DNA of 64,000 nucleotides. Origin: Negaprion brevirostris. Lineage: Eukaryota. Within the stretch, counting starts at the first letter, position 1, and every line of letters begins with the position of its first letter. The stretch covers positions 38,021,077-38,085,076 of the forward strand of contig JARDVH010000121.1 of NCBI GenBank assembly GCA_030324005.1. Direction: 5' to 3'. This document shows, piece by piece, positions 6,601-62,765 of this stretch. A program made the position numbers and the translations under genes. The notes beneath the pieces are model-generated. The model saw nothing but the letters and a program-made list of their open reading frames with translations, did not search any database and had not been told where the DNA came from.

Positions 6601-9600
6601 AGATTCAGTGAGTTCTGTGGCACAGATTTCCTGACATCAGTTTATTTCAGGTGTGAAGTCCAGAGGATCTCCAGGCATCAAGCAGGGCTGATGTTATCCA
6701 GCTCGATAGAGTTTGGAAGGATTAAGGGGGATCTCATTGAAACTTACAGAATACTGAAAGGTTCGGATAGAGTGGACATGGGAAAGATGTTTCCATTAAT
6801 AGGAGAGACTAGGGTCCAAGGGCACAGCCTCAAAGTAAAGGAATGACCCTTTAGAACTGAGGTAAGGAGGAATTTCTTCAACCAGAGGATAATGAATCTA
6901 TGAATTTCATTGCCACAGGAAGCTGGAGAGGCCAGGTCATTGAGAGTATTTAAGACAGAGATGGATGTGTTCTTGATTAGTAAAGGGATCAAAGACTATG
7001 GGGAATAGGTGGGACAATGGGGTTGAGAAACTTATCAGCCATGATTGAATGGCAGAGCAGATTTGATGAAATGAATTGTCTAATTCTGCTCTTATATCTT
7101 ATGGTCTAAGTAGGAGTGATGTTATCAGGCGGAGGGTGATGTTATCAGGCAGAGGGTGATGTTATCAGGCGGAGGGTAATGTTATACAGGCAGAGGGTGA
7201 TGTTATACAGGCAGAGGGTGATGTTATACAGGCAGAGGGTGATGTTATACAGGCAGAGGGTGATGTTATCAGGCGGAGGGTGATGTTATCAGGCAGAGGG
7301 TGACGTTATCAGGCAGAGGCTGGCGTTATCAGGCAGAGGGTGACGTTATCAGGCAGAGGGTGACGTTATCAGGCAGAGGGTGACGNNNNNNNNNNNNNNN
7401 NNNNNNNNNNNNNNNNNNNNNNNNNNNNNNNNNNNNNNNNNNNNNNNNNNNNNNNNNNNNNNNNNNNNNNNNNNNNNNNNNNNNNGGGTGACATTATCAG
7501 GCAGAGGGTGATGTTATCAGGCAGAGGGTGATATTGGGGTGGAGGGTGATGTTATCAGGGAGGGTAAGCAGTCAATCACATTGGAGGACTCTCAAAAGGC
7601 ACCTAACCTGGAAGTGAAAAACACTGAATCCCCTCAGTTTTAATTTTAGATTTTTATGACAACAAAATAAATGATTAGGACAATCACATGGGATTAAAGC
7701 TGATGATTAAATATCATAAGCAAACTATAAAATATATATGTAGAATTTATTTTTATAATGGAGATAGTCGACATTCAACAAATATAAAAGTAATCTTTCA
7801 GTGTATCTATTTATCAGTAACTGTGAACTTAAAACACCTTCAAATAACTTATATTATTTTCAACAAAGTGTAACTTTTAAAACGATATTTACAACAAACT
7901 CCAAGATCACTATTTTCCAACTCCCCTGCAGCAGGTTTCTTTACAACAGAGCTGGCAAGTCTGCAGAACCTTCCAATCCCGCGAAAGTCAATGACAGTTT
8001 GCATGGCTCGCCAGTCTCACTGACAAGGAACCCATAGCAGGAGTCAACTTCAGTAAAATCAGAAGATTCCACCAGCAGGAAGGCTGAGAAAATCCTGCAC
8101 TAAGAGTGCTGGAAGTTATCACCAATGATTTCCAATTGATTGCATTCTGGGGAAATCTCAACAGTGCACCTTCTTGCTTAAAATCACCAATGGCAATTTC
8201 TAGATTTCTGCATTTAACAGTGCATGCTAATTGATATGTTAGCTTTTGTTTCAGAGGGATTTGAAAAGAAAAAGAAGTCTTACTGCAATTGTGCAGGACA
8301 CTGGAGCAGCTACAACTGCAGTACTATCTGCAGTTTTGGTCTCCTTACATACTTGCCTGAGAGGGTGTGCAACAAAGATTTACAAAATGGGCTTCTGAAA
8401 TGAAGGGATTGTTCTATAAGGAGAGATTGAGTATATGAGATCAGTATTCCCTGGATTTTAGCAGAAGGAATGATCTAATTGAAACAAGGGTGGGCTTCTC
8501 TGGCCTTCTTGGCAGCGCGAGATGGTATGTTGCTCGCCAGTGGCAGGATCTTCTGGTTCCGCCATTGTCAATTGGATTTCCAACTGATTCTTCTTCATGC
8601 CACCATGAAACCCCTGGTGGTGGTGTGCCATTAGAGGACTGAGAGATCCTACCAATAGGAACGGCCAGAGAATTACAGCCAAAAGGCTTAAGGTGCTGGA
8701 CAGGCTGGATGCTGAGAAAATGTTTCCACTGGTACAGGTGACATGGTTGTCCAACTAGGGCTGTGATAAGAAGTTTCTTCATTCAAGGGATTGTAAATCT
8801 TTGAAATTCTCCACCCCAGAGAGCAGTAGGTGTTTGGTATATTCAAGACAGTGGTTAAAATATGTTAGGGGACTAAGGGAATTAAGAAAAATAGGGATAA
8901 TGCACGATGTTGTTGAGGTAGAAGATCAGCCATGTGGAATGATGGAGAAGGCTCAAAGGAGCAAATGACCACGTACGTTATCTTCTTATGTGCAGACTCC
9001 AGAAGTTTGCTGTCCGTTTCAGTGGTGTAATGATGGCAAACACTGAAAGTTTTGCAGTCATTATTTTCAAAAGGACATTATGTTTAACGGAAACTGTTTT
9101 CATTTGCAGAAGGGTCAATGACCAAGGAACACAGATTTAAGGTAAGTGACAAAAGAACCATGGAGAAGATGAAGAGGATACTTTAAGACTTCAAGTTGTT
9201 ATGATCTGGAATGTGTTGCTTCAAAGGATAGTGGAAGAAGATTCAATTGTAACTTTCAAGAGGGAATTAGGTATAGCCATTGGGGAAGATTTTATGGCTC
9301 ATGGAAATGAAAAGGGGAGCCAGCACAGGCAATTATGGAAGGAATGGCCTTCTTTGTTATCTCATTCTATGATCAGTGACGCAAAGGTAACATTTGCTAC
9401 TCAGCTGTGAATTGGACAAATTGACTTTCAAATCTACTTTCAAATCCACATGCCAGTGGGAAACTGGAGACTTATGAGTAACATTATTTATGGAAAAACT
9501 GAGTAGGGGGAAAATGTTCACTTTGCCATCTGAACATGGAGCTGGTATTGTTGTTTACCTTCCTCCTGTCCTCAGCAGCATCCAGCTGTTGCTGGAGTTC

Positions 9601-45600: not shown

Positions 45601-48600
45601 TTCTTGAAGTTCCCATGCATCTGCTGCCCTTGCCCTTCTAGGTGGTAGATGTTGTGAAGTTTGGAAGGTGTTTTCAAAGGAGTCTTGGTGAGTTGTTGCC
45701 GTGCATCTTGTACAAGGTACACACTGCTGCCACTGTGCATCCATGGTGGGGGAAGTGAATGTTTAAAGTAGTGTCATGAGAAGATGCATCCACTGATCTT
45801 GGTTACTCAGGTGAGGCCACTAAAGTTCTTGCAGCTCTGCATCCAGAGCCTTGGAGCTTGACTCAGCGTTTGACATCCATAGTATATGTTCCCACTGTCT
45901 TTTGACCAAGTACTTGAAGGGCCTTCTCACCCCTCCAGATACAAAACATCTCTCCTCCACCTTTCCCAGCAAGGCCTCCAGTGTACTGTTTGAAAACCTT
46001 GGCACCCATTTTCAACCATGTTCTTCACTATTGCCCTGGTCAGATACACTTCCTGCACATTTTCCAACACCTGACTCAGCTACATAAATCCCTTTAGAAG
46101 ATGTAACCTAACTTCAAGCTGTGCAAACTTTAACTAGTACGAGCAAGTTATGGTTTTGGCTTGCATACGGATACATATAGATAATGAGCTATATGATTAG
46201 TGCTGGCTGCATGCAGCAACTATTTGAAGAAACAGACTGTAAAGCCAGATGCTGCATGCTTTACATTGAACAGGCCTGGATAATTGTGAATTCTGAATTC
46301 ATTTTTGGGAACTGTCCAGTTTAGACTCCACTGTACCAACGTCATTCATTCAGCATGGGACGAGTTGAGGGCAATAATGACCATCAATCTCTAGCATCCA
46401 AGTTAAAAACTTCAACTTCCATATTTAGCTGTAACTTGACTAGATTGTCTCTGGAATTGGTTCACTTAATTGGGAAAAATGAATAGAAATTGACAGTGGT
46501 AATTTTGTAATCAATGCCTCCCAAATTCTTTTCACAAATTGTACATATATTCTATTTTGATACACTGGATGTGGTGGCCATCCTGGGCTCACTCATCCGC
46601 CTTGGTAACTTTCAAATGGGCAACAAAATATCTATAAGTACAATTTTTCAAAGGTGGCTGCTTTTGAGTCCGGACACCTTCAAAATGGACATACTAATCA
46701 CAATATCAACACTTAAATAAAAACAAGTGGGAGAAGGCATTAATTTGCGCAGTGTTGCTTCTATGCAGACTGATGTTGATTCTGCAGGGTAGCTTTCGCT
46801 GCAGCTGCACAGGTAGCAGCCCGCAGCAAAACCAGCCCCCAGGGATAAAATACAAACCTGCATAGAAGTGACAGTACACCAACAAATTTCTCCCTCGTGT
46901 TATCCAAACAGTTCAGATCAGTAAAGACAAACTCTCACTTTCACACATGATAGAAGTATGTTAATGGTAGATTTTCACAGCTTCATGGCATTATTCTACT
47001 GAAGAAAAGAGTTTTAAATTTATTAAGCATTTGGCCTTGAAATTATTCCATGAGACAGTAGCAAGTCAGTGTTTATAATACTGTTGCAGTCGCGTGAGGA
47101 AGGGTGAACTGACACCCCTATTCCACAACTCCAAGTCTGATCATAACAGGTAAAGGCAAAATAATGCCAATGCTGGAATCTGAAACAAAAACAGAAAATG
47201 GTGGACAAACTCAGCAGATCTGACAGCATCTGAGGAGAGAGAACAGAACCAACGTTTCGAGTCTGGATAACCTTTCATCCGGGTCCTTTGTCAGGGTCAG
47301 CCCTCACAAAGGATTATCCAGACTCGCAACTTTGATTCTGTCCTCTCTCTACAGATGCTGTCAGACCTGCTGAGATTTTCCAGCATTTTCTACTCGTGAC
47401 AGGATTTGACTTGTGAATCTAGAGAGGCTTATACTGCGGATGTCCCATTAGTTACACATTCAGTTTGTGAAGAATTAGGCAGACAGGTTTTCTGAGTTTA
47501 AACAAAGAACAAATAATTTAATTGAAATAACTTTCCAAATTTTTTTTAAAAATAGGTCATTTGTAACCACCATTCATAAGTCACACACCGTCCCTGAGCC
47601 CAAACATACACTAAGTATGTGGATGGTAGAAAAAAATGATAGGCTTCAAGGTATTTTTCCAATATGTAAAGAAGATAAAACAGAGGAGTGTGCCTTTGGC
47701 TGATCTCGATGCAGTGACTCAACATTGTGGTTGTTTTGCTCAGTTCTCTTCCTGTGTGTCATTGTTTGGAGCAGATCGCCACATTTTATTCCCAAAAGAT
47801 TTTTGCAATGGATTTCTCTTCTCAGAACGGTCATAATGCAAATCAGGCTCAATACTTTCTTGAGAGAGAGAGGGTACAGAGCACCAGCCTGTTTTGAGTA
47901 CGGCATTCTGATCTCTGATCTCCCTCTGGCTTGGTGATCAGTTTGGCAAGTACCCTGCTGACTGTATATTCCAGAGGAAGCAAACTTATCCATGTCTGCT
48001 GCATGCAGTGTTTTTATATTGTATTTGATGTCTCACTTCAAGGAGATGAGGTCTTTCACGCTCTCCAAAACATTTGAGTGTCTCTTCCCCATCATCCCAT
48101 TTGATGGAATGCAAGCCTATGTATTGTAGCTATCCGGTGGTCCTCCATTGGCTAAATAGAAGCATACTGTGCAGAAGGAGGCCGTTAGGCCCATCAAGTC
48201 TGCACCGACCACAATCTCACCCAGGCCCCAACCCCTTAATCCCATGCATTTACCTTGACACTAAAGAGTAATTTAGCGTGGCCAATCCACCTAACCTGCA
48301 TATCTTTGGACTGTGGGAGGAAACCGGAGCACCCAGAGGAAACCACACAGACACATGGAGAACGTGCAAACTCCTCACATACAGCCCAAGCCGGGAATCG
48401 AACCCAAGTCTCTGGTGCTGCGAGGCAGCAGTGCTAACCACTGTGCCAGTTTATTTTTTTATATTTGAAATTGTATTTTCCTCTTAACAGTACAGTCACC
48501 TGAAATTCCAGTCTCCATTTACTGGAAGCATTGTTTAGTCTAAAACGTATTGGATCTCCATAACAATATCAGATTTACTTTTATTGAATTTAATAAGCTC

Positions 48601-51600
48601 TATCCTCATATCTGTTTTGAGTTTTGGAACCAACTATGCATTATCATTATTAGGTTTTTGAGAGCTTTATAACAAATTCATTCTGGATTTGTAAATTCTA
48701 CATTTCATATAATAGACGTCCAGACAACAGAGGTCAATAGTCTGATCAGACTGTTTGGTTGCTGAGTCTTATGCATGTTAGAAAAGAAAACTAGAATCTA
48801 TTTTAAAACTGCAAATGCTTTTACACATGCATGTACATAGATATTAGGAAACAATAAATGCTTGTTTTAATTTAAATCTTTAACACTTATGAAAATTCTG
48901 TAATTATTTCCAACTTGTGCATTGTAAATGCATCTCTGGGTGAGCTACAACAGCTAGCTATGCCGTTAACTTACTGGCATTAATTTACTCACAGTAGATA
49001 CTGTTTTATTTTCCATGCAATTGATTAACTGTCTTTCCCTTCCTCATGCATTTTCCCTGCACTTCTTTTTAGGTGCTTCAGATTAGTTGATGCCCCACTT
49101 ATCAATGCAAAAAGAAGTTTGCACTAACAAAATAGGAAGAGAGCGCATTATGTATTTCTCAAATTATGTGTGGTTATGCCAAATCTCTTCACTATATACT
49201 ACATCCTGGTCACGGAACTTGGTTGTGACCAACTTCTGCCTGGAGTTATAACTGAGTTTCAACTCAACAGGAAACTTTTCAGGAAACAGGCTGAGAGCCA
49301 AGACTAAGGTGACCCTGTAGCATATTGATGACTTAACAATATGCCAATGGCTGTGCAGTTGTGATGCTCACTGCAAACGATACCCGAACCCTACCCACTG
49401 CACAGCATTCCCTACGGGGAACTAGGTCCTACCAGCAAAGGTACCAGCCAGGGAAGGGAAGACACCAGGCAAGGACCCCGATAGGCCCTGTGGATCCGTC
49501 TTAGAATAGAAAGTGATACCGTTGAAAGACTGGGGCAAACCTCATGGAGGGAGTGAGAATGAGGCAGTTGCAAGGAGCAGGAGCAGAGAGAAGTTCGGGA
49601 CTGATCAGTCTCAGCCAAGACCACGAGAAAGGGCAGCCCAAAGACATCAAGTGTGTGGTACTCTTGATGTTGATGTATGTAGCGCAGGTCTGGACTATAT
49701 CCCCAACCTGCGTCACAGCAGTTACGAGAGCCATCTTCCAATTCATCAGGAAATCCAAGATGGACCATGTCCGGATGGACACCATGCACCATGCATCTGG
49801 AGAAGGGAGAAAAAAATGTACCCAACGCTGTCCTCATCCTGATGGCCACCTTTGTGCGTGGCTGCATGAAGCTGTGCGTAAATCCTCAGTACATAAACAC
49901 CAAGTGCCACTACTAACTGATGTTCTACTTCTCCCAGTATTGCAAAGGATGGCATGTTGCCACAAAACGCTCCAAGTAAGACCGTACCATATCACCTATC
50001 CCTCATGATGAAATTCATTCAGGAAAATGTCTTTGACACAAGGCCATCAAGCAGTGGTCTGCACATCAGGTCCCTGAGGGAAAAGGAGATGGTGGATCAT
50101 GTCAGATGGTTCCCTGAGCAGACTGTCAAAGTCATTTGGCAGAATGCCTTATTACCAGAACTTCCAAACAAGCACCAAGATGTAGCTTGGCTGGTGGTGA
50201 GAAGGGCACACCTGAAGTCTCAGTGACACCAAGTGCTGCCCTTGAAGGAGGGGGTGGAGGGGGGGGGTGCGGTGGTGGAGAATGAATGAGACAATCACGC
50301 AATTCCTTATGGAATGTGCCTTTGCAAAGAAAGTGTGGAGTGAGTTGCGGGGGTATTTGTTCAGCTTCATCCTCAACAGCTCTGTGATGCAGGATTTTGC
50401 TCTATGGGCTGTTCCCAGTGGCACCCACTTGGACAAACATCAACTACTTCTAGTGGGTCATCAACTCAGTGAAAGACACTCTCTGGTCTGCCCAAACCTG
50501 TTGATATTCCAGTGCAAAGAATCAATCAAGTATTGCAGACTGGCACAATCCAAAGTCCAAGATTATGTGCTGAGGGACCCACTCAAGCTTGGGGCAGCCG
50601 TCGCAAAGGCACAATGGAGAAAGGACATTGTGTAATGCCTTTCAGCCAACGTAAATCAAGGAGTTAGTAACTGGGTAAAGTCCCTCCAACAGTGTATAAT
50701 CTCTAACTATAAGTAACTATTAAAGAACAATAAGTGCAATTTGATCAATGTACGTAGTTTTATAAAGAACTTTGGACTTATATTGAAATATATGCAAGCT
50801 CTTAGGCAAGACACAGTGTAAATCTTGATCTCAAAGGAAATGTAAATATGATCACATATTATTGTTGTAATAATTTGAAATGATTTTGTAATGTTCTATA
50901 TGAATAAAATAAATTTTTAATTAAAAACAACTTACCTGGCAAGGGAGACTCAACAATCAAGCAGGTGATGAAGCAAGCTTATTGCATTTGGGGTGTGCTG
51001 TGCCTGTGATTGTGGTTTGCCTAAGCTAGGGTAGAGTAAAGGGTCAGGGTAGCCAATGAGGTTAAACTGAGGCTTTACCTAATGCAATTTTTCAAAGCCG
51101 TCCCACCCTTTTGGCTAAAACGAAGCGTAAAGTCAAGCCCAAGAGGGGCTGTAATGCTTCATCCTGTAAGCTTGGACCTTATTTGATTGAGCCCAGGATG
51201 GGATGCAATATTTTCTCTTGTCAGCTTGGACCTGATTTTTCCCTCATGGAGGGACCATGATTGGATTAAATTTGAAATGGCTTTTTTGATTAGAAATGAA
51301 ATACAGAAATATACCAATAAAAATAAATCGTCACGGCCTCTTGGCCAAGATCAAGCGTTAGATCAGGCCCTCCCAGATGATCTAATCATGAAGGCCATCC
51401 ATTTTCTCACGTCCCTCTTTGATGTATCCATCAGTAAACAGTAGCTGCATTAGGATGAGGTAACTGCACACTTAAAAATGACAGTTTGTGATGAAGTGCA
51501 TTTAATGACAAGTCTCATTTCCACACACACAGTCACACTAAAGCTGCACAATCATCACACTTGTATGGTGTGGAAGTTTCCAAAAATGCAAAAAAAGGGG

Positions 51601-54600
51601 TGCAGTGCCTTATCTTGTCAGCTTGGATCTTGTTTGGTCCCTGTGTGGAGAATTTGAAATGGATACAATTGGAATTTGAATTCGTTTTTTGGAGAAGCAA
51701 GGAATGGATTTAGGTTTGCCTGGCCAACTCTAAGTATTGGCATAGTAATTTTAAAGATGGGGTAAAAAGAAAATTAATAATCAATCACTCACATATTATA
51801 TTTCTTATTTATTTATCTAATTATTACAATTAACAGATTACTGTCATGTATGAATTTTCTTTTTCAACCAGAATGTCCTTGCGTCTTTCTTTTGGTGACT
51901 GCAGAATTGTATACTTTAATCTTGTAATGTTTATCACAAGAACTCCCATTAATAGCTAAAAAAATGCACAACACGTATAATGAGCTCATTTGACAGAATG
52001 ATGTAACACCAGGCCCATCATAGGGCATTTGTCTTCTGAAATTAATTCAGTTTCATTTCCCCCTCCATAGAAATACAAGGTGTTAATTGTTTTAGATGTA
52101 CCCAACATCAGTGCTAATTTTGTGACAATGTAAACAAGATACTAATTATGACAGCATCTCCCTGTTAAAAGAAAATCACATCTTGGATTACGTATCCACT
52201 GCTTATAGAATCATAGAACCCTAGAGTGCAGAAAGAGGTCATTCGGCCCATTGAGCCTACACCGACCACAACCCCACCAGGCCCTACCCCATATCCCTAC
52301 ATATTTTACCTGCTACTCCCTCTAACCTACGCACCTCAGGACACTAAGAGGCGATTTTAGCATGGCCAATCAACCTAACCCACACATCTTTGGACTGTGG
52401 GAGGAAATAGGAGCACCTGGAGGAAACCCACGCAGACATGAGGAGGATGTGCAAACTCCACACAGACAGTGACCCAAGCCAGGAATTGAACCCAGGTCCC
52501 TGGTGCTGTGAAGCAGCAGTGCTAACCACTGTACTACCATGCCGCCCTGTGCTTAGATTCTGAAAATGCTATCTCTGCAATCTCTGTGAATTCCTGTCTG
52601 CGTGTGCAGATTATTTTTTCTGCATTTTTTGGAAATTTCCACACCATACAAGTGTGATGATTGTGCAGCTTTGATGTGACTGTGTGTGTGGAAATGTGTG
52701 TTATTAAATGCACTTCATCACAAACTGCCATTTTTAAATATGCAGTTACCTCATCCTAATGCAGCTACTGTTTGCTGATGGATGCATCAAAGAGGGACTT
52801 GAGCATATTGTACAGAAAATGGATGGCCTTCATGGATTAGATCATCAGGGAGGGGTTTCTTAACAGTTTTGAGCTCTGATAAAAAAATGTGGTAAGAGAC
52901 TTCAAGGTTTTATGAAGGTTTGCAGAAGCCTAATTTCCCTTTGAACATTTGATGTTCCACACTGTGTAACCTTCTGTTATCTGTCTCATGTATTGTATTA
53001 GATTATATTACAATACTCGTGATGTGCACTCCCTGACATTACCACACCAGACAGCTTTGAATATGATTAAATCAACAGCAAGAAGTGATCACTGTAAATG
53101 TACGAGCTATTAATGGGGCAGCACGGTAGCATAGTAGTTAGCGCTGCTGCCTCACAGTGTCAGGAACCTGGGTTCAATTCCAGCTTTGCGTGACTGTGTG
53201 GAGTTTGCACATTCTCCCCGAGTCTATGTGGATTTTCTTTGGGTGCTCCGGTTTCCTCCCACAATCCAAAGATGTGCAGATTAGGCGGATAGGCCAGGCT
53301 AAATTGCCACCTAATATCTAAAACTGTGTAGGTTGGGGGTATTAGCTATGGAAAATGTGTGGGGTTACAGGGATAGAGCGGGGGAGAGAGCCTGGACAGA
53401 TACTTGATCAGAGAATCAGTGCAGATTTGACATGATGAATGACCTCATCTGCTTTGTAGAAATTCTATGATTCTATGTATATATGAATAAACTGATGAAC
53501 TACAAAAGAAATTGAGGGATAAGTTGAGTGAGTTTTTCCAAATCTCTTCAATTCTGAACAATGGGGACAATTCTCCCATGCTGCTGCACTAATTTTTTAG
53601 TAAGAGGTCCCATAACACCAGGTTAAAGTCCAACAGGTTTATTTGGTAGCAAAATTCACTAGCTTTCAGAGTGCTGCCCCTTTGTCAAGTGAATGGGAGT
53701 TCTGTTCACAAACAAGGCATATAAAGACACAAACTCAATTTACAACATAATGGTTGGAATGCGGATCTTTCCAGGTAATCTTTTAGCGCAGCGGGCTGGC
53801 GGGGGAGTAACTTGTGGGAATCCCACAAATGTTCATGCTCCGCTAATGTCTCCCAGTGCCGAATTTCCAGCAGTGTCTGCTCCACACTGGAAATCGACGG
53901 GGAGGCAGAGTTAGCATTAAATGATANNNNNNNNNNNNNNNNNNNNNNNNNNNNNNNNNNNNNNNNNNNNNNNNNNNNNNNNNNNNNNNNNNNNNNNNNN
54001 NNNNNNNNNNNNNNNNNNNNNNNNNNNNNNNNNNNNNNNNNNNNNNNNNNNNNNNNNNNNNNNNNNNNNNNNNNNNNNNNNNNNNNNNNNNNNNNNNNNN
54101 NNNNNNNNNNNNNNNNNNNNNNNNNNNNNNNNNNNNNNNNNNNNNNNNNNNNNNNNNNNNNNNNNNNNNNNNNNNNNNNNNNNNNNNNNNNNNNNNNNNN
54201 NNNNNNNNNNNNNNNNNNNNNNNNNNNNNNNNNNNNNNNNNNNNNNNNNNNNNNNNNNNNNNNNNNNNNNNNNNNNNNNNNNNNNNNNNNNNNNNNNNNN
54301 NNNNNNNNNNNNNNNNNNNNNNNNNNNNNNNNNNNNNNNNNNNNNNNNNNNNNNNNNNNNNNNNNNNNNNNNNNNNNNNNNNNNNNNNNNNNNNNNNACA
54401 CAAAGTGTGTAGTGAGATTCTAGTCTGAACTCCCACTGAAAAAACAATCGTGATTTACATCAATTTTCCCATGAATTCAACACTGAGAATGCTTTTTTGA
54501 AGAAAACCGCCTAATCCATCCTTAATCTTCAAAATGCATTATTTTGAAAATCTTCATAAGAATTCATATGATTAGTACGTATTATGGAATATCTGCCGAA

Positions 54601-61228: not shown

Positions 61229-62765
61229 TGAAAAATATAATTTCTTTAACCTTTTCAGAACTGTGTACTGCATGATGTTGTAGTGCTAAATAAATATATA
61301 TAATAGACACTCACATATATTCTCAATTATCTTCATGGTAACTTTCTGTATTAAAAGATTGCCAAAAAATATTTGACCTTGACATTGTACATTGCCAGGT
61401 TTTGGTGGAAATTTTCAATATGCTAAGTTAACTCATTGCACAAGGGTATTTTTCACATTTTCCAACAAGAATTTTATGCATTGCAACAATGTGCTAAAAA
61501 AATTCAATTGGCCGTTCTCTGTTTTATCCTCAGATTCAAGGAGAAACAATGTCGTGCTTGGTATAAATAAAGGCACAAAAAATGAACAAACAAATCTACT
61601 GAGGTCTGTCAGCTGACAAATGGGAACTCTCAAATCAGGATCTGAAATCCACATAATCAGTAAATTACTTAATTGAAATAATTAGCATGTCAATGAGTTG
61701 GTAACAAAAAATACTAAAGTGGAATGAATCTCCTCCAACACTAAGTTAAAGATCTTTACTTTCATACTCAAAAGGTTCTCTTTTGAAAATATCATACACT
61801 ATGGGTGAGATTTTGCAGCCTCACTTGTCCCAAGACTAATGGACCTTTCCATTGTCCGCCCTTTGCCTGCTACGATTCCCAAGGTGGGCTGGGCGGTAAG
61901 ATTCCGGCCTATGTAACATTACATTGTGGGGGAAGATGCAATTTTGAAGAGAACTTTGCATTAGGTGGTTGGTAGTAAGAGCATGCCAAAGTAGATATTC
62001 AACACTGATAGGCAGCTGGCCTAGAGGCTGTTAATACAAGCCATTTTGACTCTAAGTCCTTGTTCTGGCCAGGTTGCGTCTGGGACTAATACTCAGTCCA
62101 AGGAGCAGAAAATGGCTCAGAATTTTTTGAAACAATTACTCCATTTTTAAAGTTACAACACCAATGTGCAGAGTGGAGCAAGCAATTCAAGAGAATCTAA
62201 TTCAAGGTCCCCACAGGAGGTCAAAACAAGACCCAAGCTGACAAGATAAGTCATTGCCCCCCACACCCACGCCCCACCATCTTGGGCTTGATCCAATTTG
62301 ATCTTACCCAAAAGGCTGAGAAAATGGCCCAGAATATTGTTGTGTCAGTTTCTGCAATTCTTTTTCACATCAGTCATTTTCCATTAAAGAGTTGGGTGGA
62401 CCTTCCATCCACTTTCCTTTTTAATCGAGGGACATGAAAGGGATTAACTTCCACATGCCCAAGGAATCCTGATCTTAAAAGCCTCAATGGAATTCCTGCT
62501 GTATCCACTGAAAAATATAATTCCTTTAACCTTTTCAGTACTGTGTGCTGCATGATGTTGTAGTGCTAAATAAATATATATGTAATAGACACATACACAC
62601 ACACACACATATATTATATATTATACTCTTGATTATCTTCATGGTGACTTTCTGTATTAAAAGATTGCCAAAAAAGATTTGACCTTGAAATTGTACATTG
62701 CCATGTTTCAAGGGAAATTTTCAATATGCTAGGTTGATTCACTGCACAAGGGTATTTCTCACATT
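61229..62765 (+). repeat. ~240-bp direct repeat pair (61229-61459 / 62509-62765)
   Basis: TGAAAAATATAATT..TTTAACCTTTTCAG...CATGATGTTGTAGTGCTAAATAAATATATA...GCACAAGGGTATTT.TCACATT occurs twice. Confidence 0.92.
61803..61909. mobile_element. Short Harbinger-like MITE
   Basis: GGGTGAGATTTTGC ... GGTAAGATTCCGGCC imperfect TIRs flanked by a TAT 3-bp duplication. Confidence 0.5.

Follow-up and report, generated by a model that had tools for sequence, protein, structure and literature searches.

The window analysed here is a stretch of 64,000 nucleotides from Negaprion brevirostris, and the question it raises is how the A-rich tail of a Tx1-type LINE came to end directly at the 5′ end of a U1-like sequence that is followed by further snRNA-like sequence at 50930-51770. 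The reading we consider probable is that the stack comprises one truncated LINE and single copies of two dispersed snRNA-derived families, termed A and B, laid down in three separate retrotranspositions re-using one A-rich site, with the short elements copied by the enzyme of the LINE group. The components are as follows.

49645-50929, plus strand: Tx1-type LINE, 5′-truncated and frameshifted, with the end of ORF2, the 3′ UTR and an A-rich tail
50930-51326, plus strand: family A copy, about 390 bp, 86% identical to the family majority sequence; 28 other copies aligned
51327-51367, plus strand: family B copy, 5′ part, with a U2 head from nt 1; 86% to family B
51368-51596, plus strand: insert splitting the B copy, 229 bp, from the opposite strand about 1 kb downstream
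51597-51770, plus strand: family B copy, 3′ part, with the remaining hairpin, a diverged U2 body to the U2 3′ end and an A-tail; 86% to family B
52615-52854, minus strand: presumed source of the insert, 88% identical
62136-62322, minus strand: second family B copy in the window, with a target-site duplication of about 15 nt

The junction itself, at 50929/50930, is seen directly and agrees with the earlier note, the LINE tail abutting U1 nt 2-3. That note had parsed the downstream sequence as a U1 head followed by two U2-like units of one composite family; the sequences are real, but the U1 head and the first unit form a single element of family A, and the second unit belongs to a different family, B, interrupted at 51368-51596. 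What had been read as a non-U2 linker forms the 5′ arm of a hairpin of 50 nt and looks like a diverged repeat of U2 nt ~23-34. Dispersed snRNA-derived repeats are supported, though as at least three families rather than one. Family A is 389 bp long, poly(A)-tailed and non-coding, with a mean identity to its majority sequence of 87.8% (28 copies), and consists of a U1 head, a 25-nt U4 piece, a U2 piece, two 50-nt hairpins and the A-tail, placed in the window copy as follows.

50930-51010, plus strand: U1-derived head, U1 nt ~3-95, 46.8 bits
51049-51073, plus strand: U4-derived piece, U4 nt 23-47, 29.7 bits; Rfam U4 E=1.7
51107-51129, plus strand: internal U2 5′ piece, U2 nt 13-35, 24.0 bits, marginal
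51130-51179, plus strand: hairpin module 1, ends approximate
51184-51233, plus strand: hairpin module 2, ends approximate, then a U2 stem-IIb-like hairpin and a U-run

These scores come from comparison with the genome's own U1, U2 and U4 genes (the best Rfam loci), for which the best scores in 200 shuffles are 21.1, 22.6 and 21.1 bits, respectively. At family level the head covers U1 nt 1-95 and carries a family-wide 11-nt deletion (about U1 nt 39-49) that breaks U1 stem I. The U4 piece, a module overlooked by the first reading, is identical at 23 of 25 positions for the family (E=1e-5) and at 22 of 25 in the window copy, and corresponds to the 5′ stem-loop with its K-turn. Of 29 A copies, 6 contain a strict K-turn pattern and 14 the U1 loop-II heptamer, and the motifs are too decayed to support protein binding by either element. 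Family B measures about 220 bp (219 bp), is U2-derived from end to end and A-tailed, and averages 90.7% identity to its majority sequence over the 29 other copies aligned. Its head corresponds to U2 nt ~1-31, and U2 nt 7-34 are matched at 51331-51358 with 31.1 bits. The branch-point-pairing sequence is altered in both families, and neither window copy contains an ORF of at least 100 aa. The insert that splits the B copy has two matches genome-wide, itself and 52615-52854, with short microhomology at its junctions; as a single locus it was rejected as a MITE, transposon end or repeat family. A third family, C, is 304 bp long and A-tailed, has a head of U2 nt 1-40 and averages 95.0% identity over 30 copies.

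Covariance models, the check suggested in the earlier note for U1 and U2, give nothing at gathering score in the window: a local Rfam search returns only U2 (E=0.35) and U4 (E=1.7), with no U1 match, and the locus has no full-length match at gathering score of the kind that would mark a functional U1, U2 or U4 gene. Among eight better-preserved loci, U2 is matched for family C (L247, L250, L256) and family B (L093, E=4e-4), with no match for the two family A loci. All three families are dispersed and A-tailed, start at or near snRNA nt 1, and have in common family-wide deletions, duplications and junctions; they are families with a common diagnostic structure rather than independent retrocopies. 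Since the copies taken are the best hits, the family identities quoted above are biased young. In 476,516 random non-N bases two elements were found (one A, one split B and no C), against none with reversed sequence, which extrapolates to roughly 11,000 copies of A and B together (1,400-41,000). The best flank repeat reaches at least 9 nt in 7 of 28 A and 8 of 29 B copies (15/57) as against about 10% of mismatched pairs (p=3e-4), and clear target-site duplications are present at L286, L233, L093 and the second B copy in the window; family C has no such excess (3/30 versus a 14.6% control).

The LINE begins later than had been proposed. Alignment to L139, L140 and L155 sets its 5′ limit at 49645, and 49300-49645 was rejected as part of it, having no match at any other place in the genome. 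The ORF2 stop lies at 50635 and an AATAAA signal at 50903-50908. Pfam searches with four ORF fragments of the window copy gave no relevant family. Its placement as a likely Tx1-type element, as first claimed, is supported by an RVT_1 match in the reverse transcriptase of the longer relative L140 (E=5e-14), by homologues carrying an endonuclease (PF03372/PF14529), a reverse transcriptase and PF13966, and by one homologue named transposon TX1 149 kDa protein (43%). A first look gave 1590 candidates for the LINE. Extension of 20 LINE loci to 10 kb yielded no full-length copy, and a genome-wide reverse transcriptase search for an intact partner, in which 20 of 150 matches were compared by tblastx and blastp, gave none like the window LINE.

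The association between this LINE and the snRNA-derived repeats, which the earlier note had proposed, is far above chance. In an unbiased set of 42 LINE loci, chosen by queries without B or U2 sequence, family B starts within about 60 nt of the LINE tail at four (L063, L076, L285, L286), where 0.01-0.04 A or B heads are expected (p<1e-7). At L070 and L072 an A or B element ends just upstream of a truncated LINE, and at L091 one short target is present on both outer sides of A and B and again between them. Of six loci with B close after a LINE tail, the four clearest (L076, L233, L285, L286) have target-site duplications around B only, which is as compatible with B having inserted into the LINE tail as with the opposite order. 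Insertion by the LINE group at the U2 site is likewise upheld, at loci other than the window: LINE tails abut U2 nt ~39-46 at L078, L225 and L229, and family C tails abut U2 nt ~39-43 in 5 of 30 copies, the counts for C, L225 and L229 being enriched by junction-spanning queries and the unbiased figure being 1 of 42 LINE loci. Among copies scorable through a complete 3′ end and A-run (19/28 A, 23/29 B, 29/30 C), none of the 19 A or 23 B copies has a U2-nt-39-like 3′ flank. The families have a target in common with the Tx1-type LINE, through U2 nt 39 for C and through stacking for B, the link being weak for A; beyond B and scattered repeats, 22 LINE 3′ flanks have no common target. As comparison of the LINE with A, B and C gives no common 3′ sequence beyond AATAAA and an A-tail, the mobilising partner is judged from targets and ages, and these make mobilisation by Tx1 likely for the three families, although another enzyme of the L1/Tx1 group could also do so.

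Movement of the short families by a different LINE, with the Tx1 link reflecting a common taste for A-rich DNA, is the alternative that survives best, and we consider it unlikely. The missing common 3′ tail and the lack of U2-39 flanks in A and B favour it, as does a common tRNA-type SINE that is also found near LINE tails; but that SINE is about 80-fold denser, so that some 0.8 neighbours are expected by chance against the far smaller expectation for the four A/B heads seen, and family C has the exact U2 site in common with the LINE group. A one-step chimera, in which the reverse transcriptase jumped from B RNA to A RNA to LINE RNA and the whole stack arrived in a single insertion, is quite improbable. 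It would explain why in the window each tail runs directly into the snRNA 5′ end that follows, without a distinct spacer, and the additional U1 or U2 segments that L022, L249 and L261 carry at their 5′ ends show that template switching happens in these families, such additions also being described in the cited parts of PMC4494074. No duplication brackets the whole window stack, however, and duplications bracket single elements at L070, L076, L091, L233, L285 and L286. A triple target duplication in the window is A/T-rich and not significant.

The 50-nt hairpin is common to A, B and C and covaries across the families, in a sample capped at 14 gap-free modules of each type (69 of the 111 that passed). 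Its structure was derived from the same sequences used to score covariation, and on it 87% of cells are paired and 89 cells carry changes on both sides versus 41 in shuffles (0/500). The compensatory changes go back to about 3-5 events that separate five module types and were passed on to many copies, and only seven pairs are changed on both sides, below the shuffle mean of 8.3. On this folding model the hairpin may have been selected in the source RNAs. In folding, the window A copy does not exceed shuffled sequence (z=-1.0); z lies between -0.4 and -3.2 for other copies of A and B, and reaches -5.4 for the C copy L247. A resemblance of the hairpin to 7SK found no Rfam support and was rejected. 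Source-RNA selection, implied by the conserved hairpin and the still pairable-looking U2-like stems, would suit the view that the three families are not selfish SINEs but processed pseudogenes derived from divergent, working snRNA-like genes of the host, and ordinary retrocopies of U1, U2 and U4 are common in this genome. This is nonetheless very unlikely given the mosaic of three snRNAs, the broken U1 stem I, the changed branch-point-pairing sequence in A and B and the successive structural subfamilies of differing ages; moreover, none of five other U2 and five other U1 aligned loci resembles the family bodies.

Least probable is the model of the earlier note, with a composite SINE family as landing pad and a U1/U2-specific Tx1 that had inserted at its U1 head. 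The U1 abutment in the window and the three U2 loci recommend this model, but it is largely refuted for U1, as none of 39 other hits spans a LINE-tail/U1 junction, 34 of the 42 unbiased LINE loci have no adjacent A, B, C or U2 match at either end (some ends lying in gaps or at contig ends), no LINE is seen interrupting A or B at the U2-39-equivalent position, and the window LINE interrupts neither U1 nor U2. The three-part stack is not a repeat unit.

Under the favoured reading of three separate retrotranspositions, the LINE endonuclease would have a relaxed Keno-like preference, cutting at U2 nt 38|39 if present and otherwise at A-rich sites, and the LINE enzyme would act in trans on A, B and C RNAs, to which new heads would be added repeatedly. 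Keno and Utopia also have 3′ flanks from U2 nt ~39 (PMC4640811, PMC6136364), and crocodilian Utopia is described with weakened specificity and target-like flanks in the cited parts of the same papers. Keno inserts specifically at U2 nt 38|39, whereas the shark LINE does so at one of the 42 unbiased loci, three in all, and not in the window copy; it works like a relaxed Keno. Utopia, as described there, has a restriction-like endonuclease, unlike the endonucleases of the shark LINE homologues.

The closest described elements are SINEU-1, -2 and -3, crocodilian snRNA-headed SINEs (Kojima 2015, PMC4494074), for which the cited parts of that paper infer mobilisation from targets common to a Keno-related Tx1 group, leave transcription open, snRNA promoters being located upstream of the transcribed RNA, and find no SINEU outside crocodilians. 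As described there, they resemble A, B and C in U1- or U2-derived heads, poly(A) tails, lengths below 500 bp, internal oligo-T, repeated head additions, partial duplications, the lack of a LINE-derived tail, and tandem insertions that sandwich a duplication. SINEU-3, with its reworked U2, is similar to B, and SINEU-2, in which U1 precedes U2, is similar to A. The cited text does not mention a U4 part, present in A, or describe a covarying hairpin module. SINEU targets Mariner-N4_AMi, whereas the shark flanks examined have no common transposon target and C sits at the U2 Keno site. A, B and C are SINEU-like retroposons outside crocodilians, with a U4 module in A; they probably originated independently. 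Chimeric snRNA/LINE retrocopies and tailless snRNA pseudogenes (cited parts of PMC4494074; bioRxiv 2025.02.02.635956) also join snRNA to retroposed sequence, and plain snRNA retrocopies occur here too, but each of those chimeras is a single event that places the snRNA upstream of the LINE, whereas A, B and C are whole families with common junctions and substitutions. The literature covered, including the cited parts of PMC5499810, PMC5381603, PMC7245038, PMC7922186 and PMC8455134, contains no shark or ray snRNA-headed SINE.

A wider proposal, offered tentatively and at somewhat less than even confidence, is that an abundant SINEU-like clan, with a U1+U4+U2 mosaic among its members, arose independently in cartilaginous fish, and that the youngest family of this clan is transcribed from the Keno site in a U2 gene through the upstream Pol II promoter of U2, with a selected fold-back masking the branch-point-pairing region. 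Family C would have arisen through the insertion of an element into a U2 gene at the Keno site and its transcription from the upstream promoter there, and the head of C is predicted to fold back over U2 nt 25-39, which would hide that region. Because the head ends at the U2 site where C and the LINE insert, family C makes the transcription question testable. The U2 parts that follow C copies may instead be read-through carried from a few masters; at L248 the U2 variant after the tail is visibly different. No recognisable U2 promoter lies upstream of the C copies examined, and the sequence upstream of the best U2 locus has no match at the other loci retrieved. If true, such promoter borrowing would explain both the transcription of promoterless snRNA-headed SINEs and their continual gain of new heads. 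Thousands of copies in a second vertebrate lineage would mean that the snRNA-headed design can arise repeatedly, and the U4 piece and covarying hairpin suggest RNA features by which LINE machinery may be captured even though the non-coding RNA has no LINE-derived tail. Such repeats inflate snRNA annotation in these genomes, and A, B and C could be used as insertion markers. Part of family A is present in 20 of the 24 sequencing runs listed by sequence search, among which there is no RNA run, and the family A share is at least 0.43 in six of these 24, from four organisms, one possibly the source.

Compared with the best U1, U2 and U4 loci of the same genome, the window sequence following the LINE is descended from snRNAs. 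Position 50929 is the last of the LINE tail and 50930 the first of the U1-like sequence, the very junction that the earlier note had described. The ancestry is genuine: the window copy scores 46.8 bits against U1 nt 3-95, 31.1 bits against U2 nt 7-34, 24.0 bits against U2 nt 13-35 and 29.7 bits against U4 nt 23-47, whereas the maximum over 200 shuffles for such matching is 21.1-22.6 bits. The Rfam check proposed by the same note gave no match in the window at gathering score, and locally just U2 at E=0.35 and U4 at E=1.7. That note's observation is borne out in part, as is its interpretation: the sequence is dispersed and multi-copy and falls into two separate families, A and B, and a third, C, lies elsewhere in the genome.

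snRNA-derived repeat families
Family A (window 50930-51326): ~390 bp; in order, U1 nt 1-95, U4 piece, U2 5′ piece, two 50-nt modules, stem-IIb-like hairpin, U-run, AATAAA, A-tail
Family B (window 51327-51770): ~220 bp; U2 head, one module, then U2 body reaching the U2 3′ end
Family C (absent from the window; L244-L273, e.g. L247:1485-1790 and L256:1485-1944): ~305 bp, 95% to the majority sequence; younger, U2-headed

A search of the genome with 50900-51760 returned 3509 first-look candidates, and nearly all of the 40 scored cover the first ~400 bases; family A is defined by alignment of 28 of these matches with the window copy. Its U1 head carries an 11-nt deletion common to these copies, its U4 piece corresponds to U4 nt 23-47 (23/25 identical, E=1e-5), and AATAAA is present in 17 of the 29 copies. 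Family B, defined from 29 copies, comes from a search with 51597-51760 (1959 candidates), and its diverged U2 body (64-69%) extends to the 3′ end of U2. The window's B copy is split by 229 bp (51368-51596) with one other genomic occurrence, inverted, at 52615-52854, and with short microhomology at the junctions; it is probably a local templated insertion. The two segments form a single-locus inverted duplication that landed in a SINE copy ~1 kb from its source.

For each of the five module types, the 50-nt module is predicted to form a single hairpin whose internal loop is 1x3. Across 69 natural copies, 87% of cells are paired, against 30-48% in slid controls, and both-side changes occur in 89 cells versus 41 in shuffles (reached in 0/500); counted by pairs, both-side changes are no more numerous than in shuffles. 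Some 3-5 compensatory events separating the source lineages account for the covariation. In predicted folds, a young C copy, whose head doubles back onto U2 nt 25-39, reaches z=-5.4, and the window A copy z=-1.0. Exchange of heads between bodies is visible across loci, with an A body bearing a U2 head (L072), a B-like body with a short U1 head and U4 piece (L021), and a copy bridging A and C via the U4 piece (L054).

A sample of 60 segments of 10 kb, taken at round-number positions and totalling 476,516 non-N bases, contains one A copy and one split B copy, which extrapolates to about 11,000 A and B copies genome-wide (95% range 1,400-41,000). Among best-matching copies, mean identity to the majority sequence is 87.8% for A and 90.7% for B; the window copies are both at 86%. 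Flank repeats of at least 9 nt accompany 15 of 57 A and B copies, compared with ~10% of mismatched pairs (p=3e-4).

The stack of LINE, A and B is not a repeat unit of its own. None of 39 other matches spans the LINE-U1 junction; stacking is nevertheless frequent. Of 42 LINE loci from queries lacking B or U2 sequence (29 from the first LINE search, 13 new from a junction search), four have a B start no more than ~60 nt past the tail (expected 0.01-0.04), one further locus has it at 145 nt, one is followed by U2, and two have an A or B end immediately 5′ of a truncated LINE. Among twelve LINE-side matches of a U2-junction search, two more run from LINE to B, and another has a C-like copy immediately 5′. 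Duplications enclose single elements in five loci (L070, L076, L233, L285, L286), and in L091 A and B are set among three occurrences of the same target. Such an arrangement is what target-primed insertions produce when they use a single A-rich site repeatedly; the window junctions are too A/T-rich for a duplication or insertion order to be visible.

Homology of the window LINE to other copies begins at 49645. A longer relative contains an RT domain, whose homologues carry endonuclease, RT and PF13966 domains, one being named transposon TX1 149 kDa; the closest named protein match is from a ray (67%). Upstream, 49400-49644 is purine-rich and yielded no second genomic match; it may be what is left of an old ORF1, or have no relation to the LINE. 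Small unplaced contigs (L119-L138) hold numerous RT frames that are close to intact and belong to various LINE types; none matches the window LINE, and they are possibly foreign DNA within the assembly.

The U2-targeting Tx1 that had been proposed is supported by joins near nt 39, but strict Keno specificity fails: the single U2 case among the 42 loci, L078, has its tail fused to U2 at nt ~39-44, and a junction query found further joins in L225 (nt ~46) and L229 (nt 39). PMC4640811 gives Keno and Utopia common 3′ flanks starting at nt 39, and PMC6136364 the same U2 target for Keno. The window LINE group behaves as a relaxed Keno-like Tx1.

Family C (3923 candidates, cross-matches included) has U2 nt 1-40 as its head. 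U2 resumes at nt ~39-43 after C in 5 of 30 copies of this query-enriched set, once in a visibly different U2 variant; a similar flank follows none of 19 scored A or 23 scored B copies. In L256, U2 nt 1-40 leads into the C body and its A-tail, after which come U2 nt 39-191 and the 3′ flank of the gene. The simplest origin is that an element inserted at the Keno site in a U2 gene and C would then have been transcribed from the U2 promoter, a step we infer, since no recognisable promoter was found on the C copies examined. Alternatively, the head could derive from template switching onto U2 RNA, which is evident in the additional heads that L249 and L261 carry.

Nine U2 copies (L039, L040, L224, L227, L234, L235, L237, L243, L225) have 38-54 nt of 3′ flank in common with the best U2 locus, which suggests retrocopies of unprocessed pre-U2. 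Three tandem U2 variants (L036-L038, G000:C157:37354999-37356174) have a period of 492 bp, 84% identity to the main U2 and ~171 bits in Rfam. There are also divergent U2 and U1 variants that score high in Rfam (L032-L034, L042, L044, L047), of which those on small contigs may be non-host DNA.

A, B and C work like the crocodilian SINEU and agree with its structural definition (PMC4494074); that paper records none outside crocodilians. Newly described features are the host lineage, the U4 module and the hairpin, together with a SINE that occupies the Keno site. The literature searched, whose scope ended short of subscription journals, Repbase Reports and Dfam, contained no report of snRNA-headed SINEs in sharks or rays; in our judgement a library entry for these families is quite possible, if less likely than not.

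The abundant tRNA-type SINE of this genome is presumably HE1, which together with the ray protein match points to a shark or ray as host. A short, MITE-typical inverted-repeat element with 83-nt arms lies at window 47193-47391; similar sequence occurs in the L057 spacer and splits an A copy at L091:406-645. A tandem array of a 20-21-nt repeat spans an assembly gap at window 7096-7557. The open frame at L139:8579-9091 (minus strand) looks like a possible exon of a voltage-gated calcium channel, and a hairpin at L016:2850-2956 with sub-threshold Rfam miRNA matches (best E=2e-6) is probably an inverted repeat.
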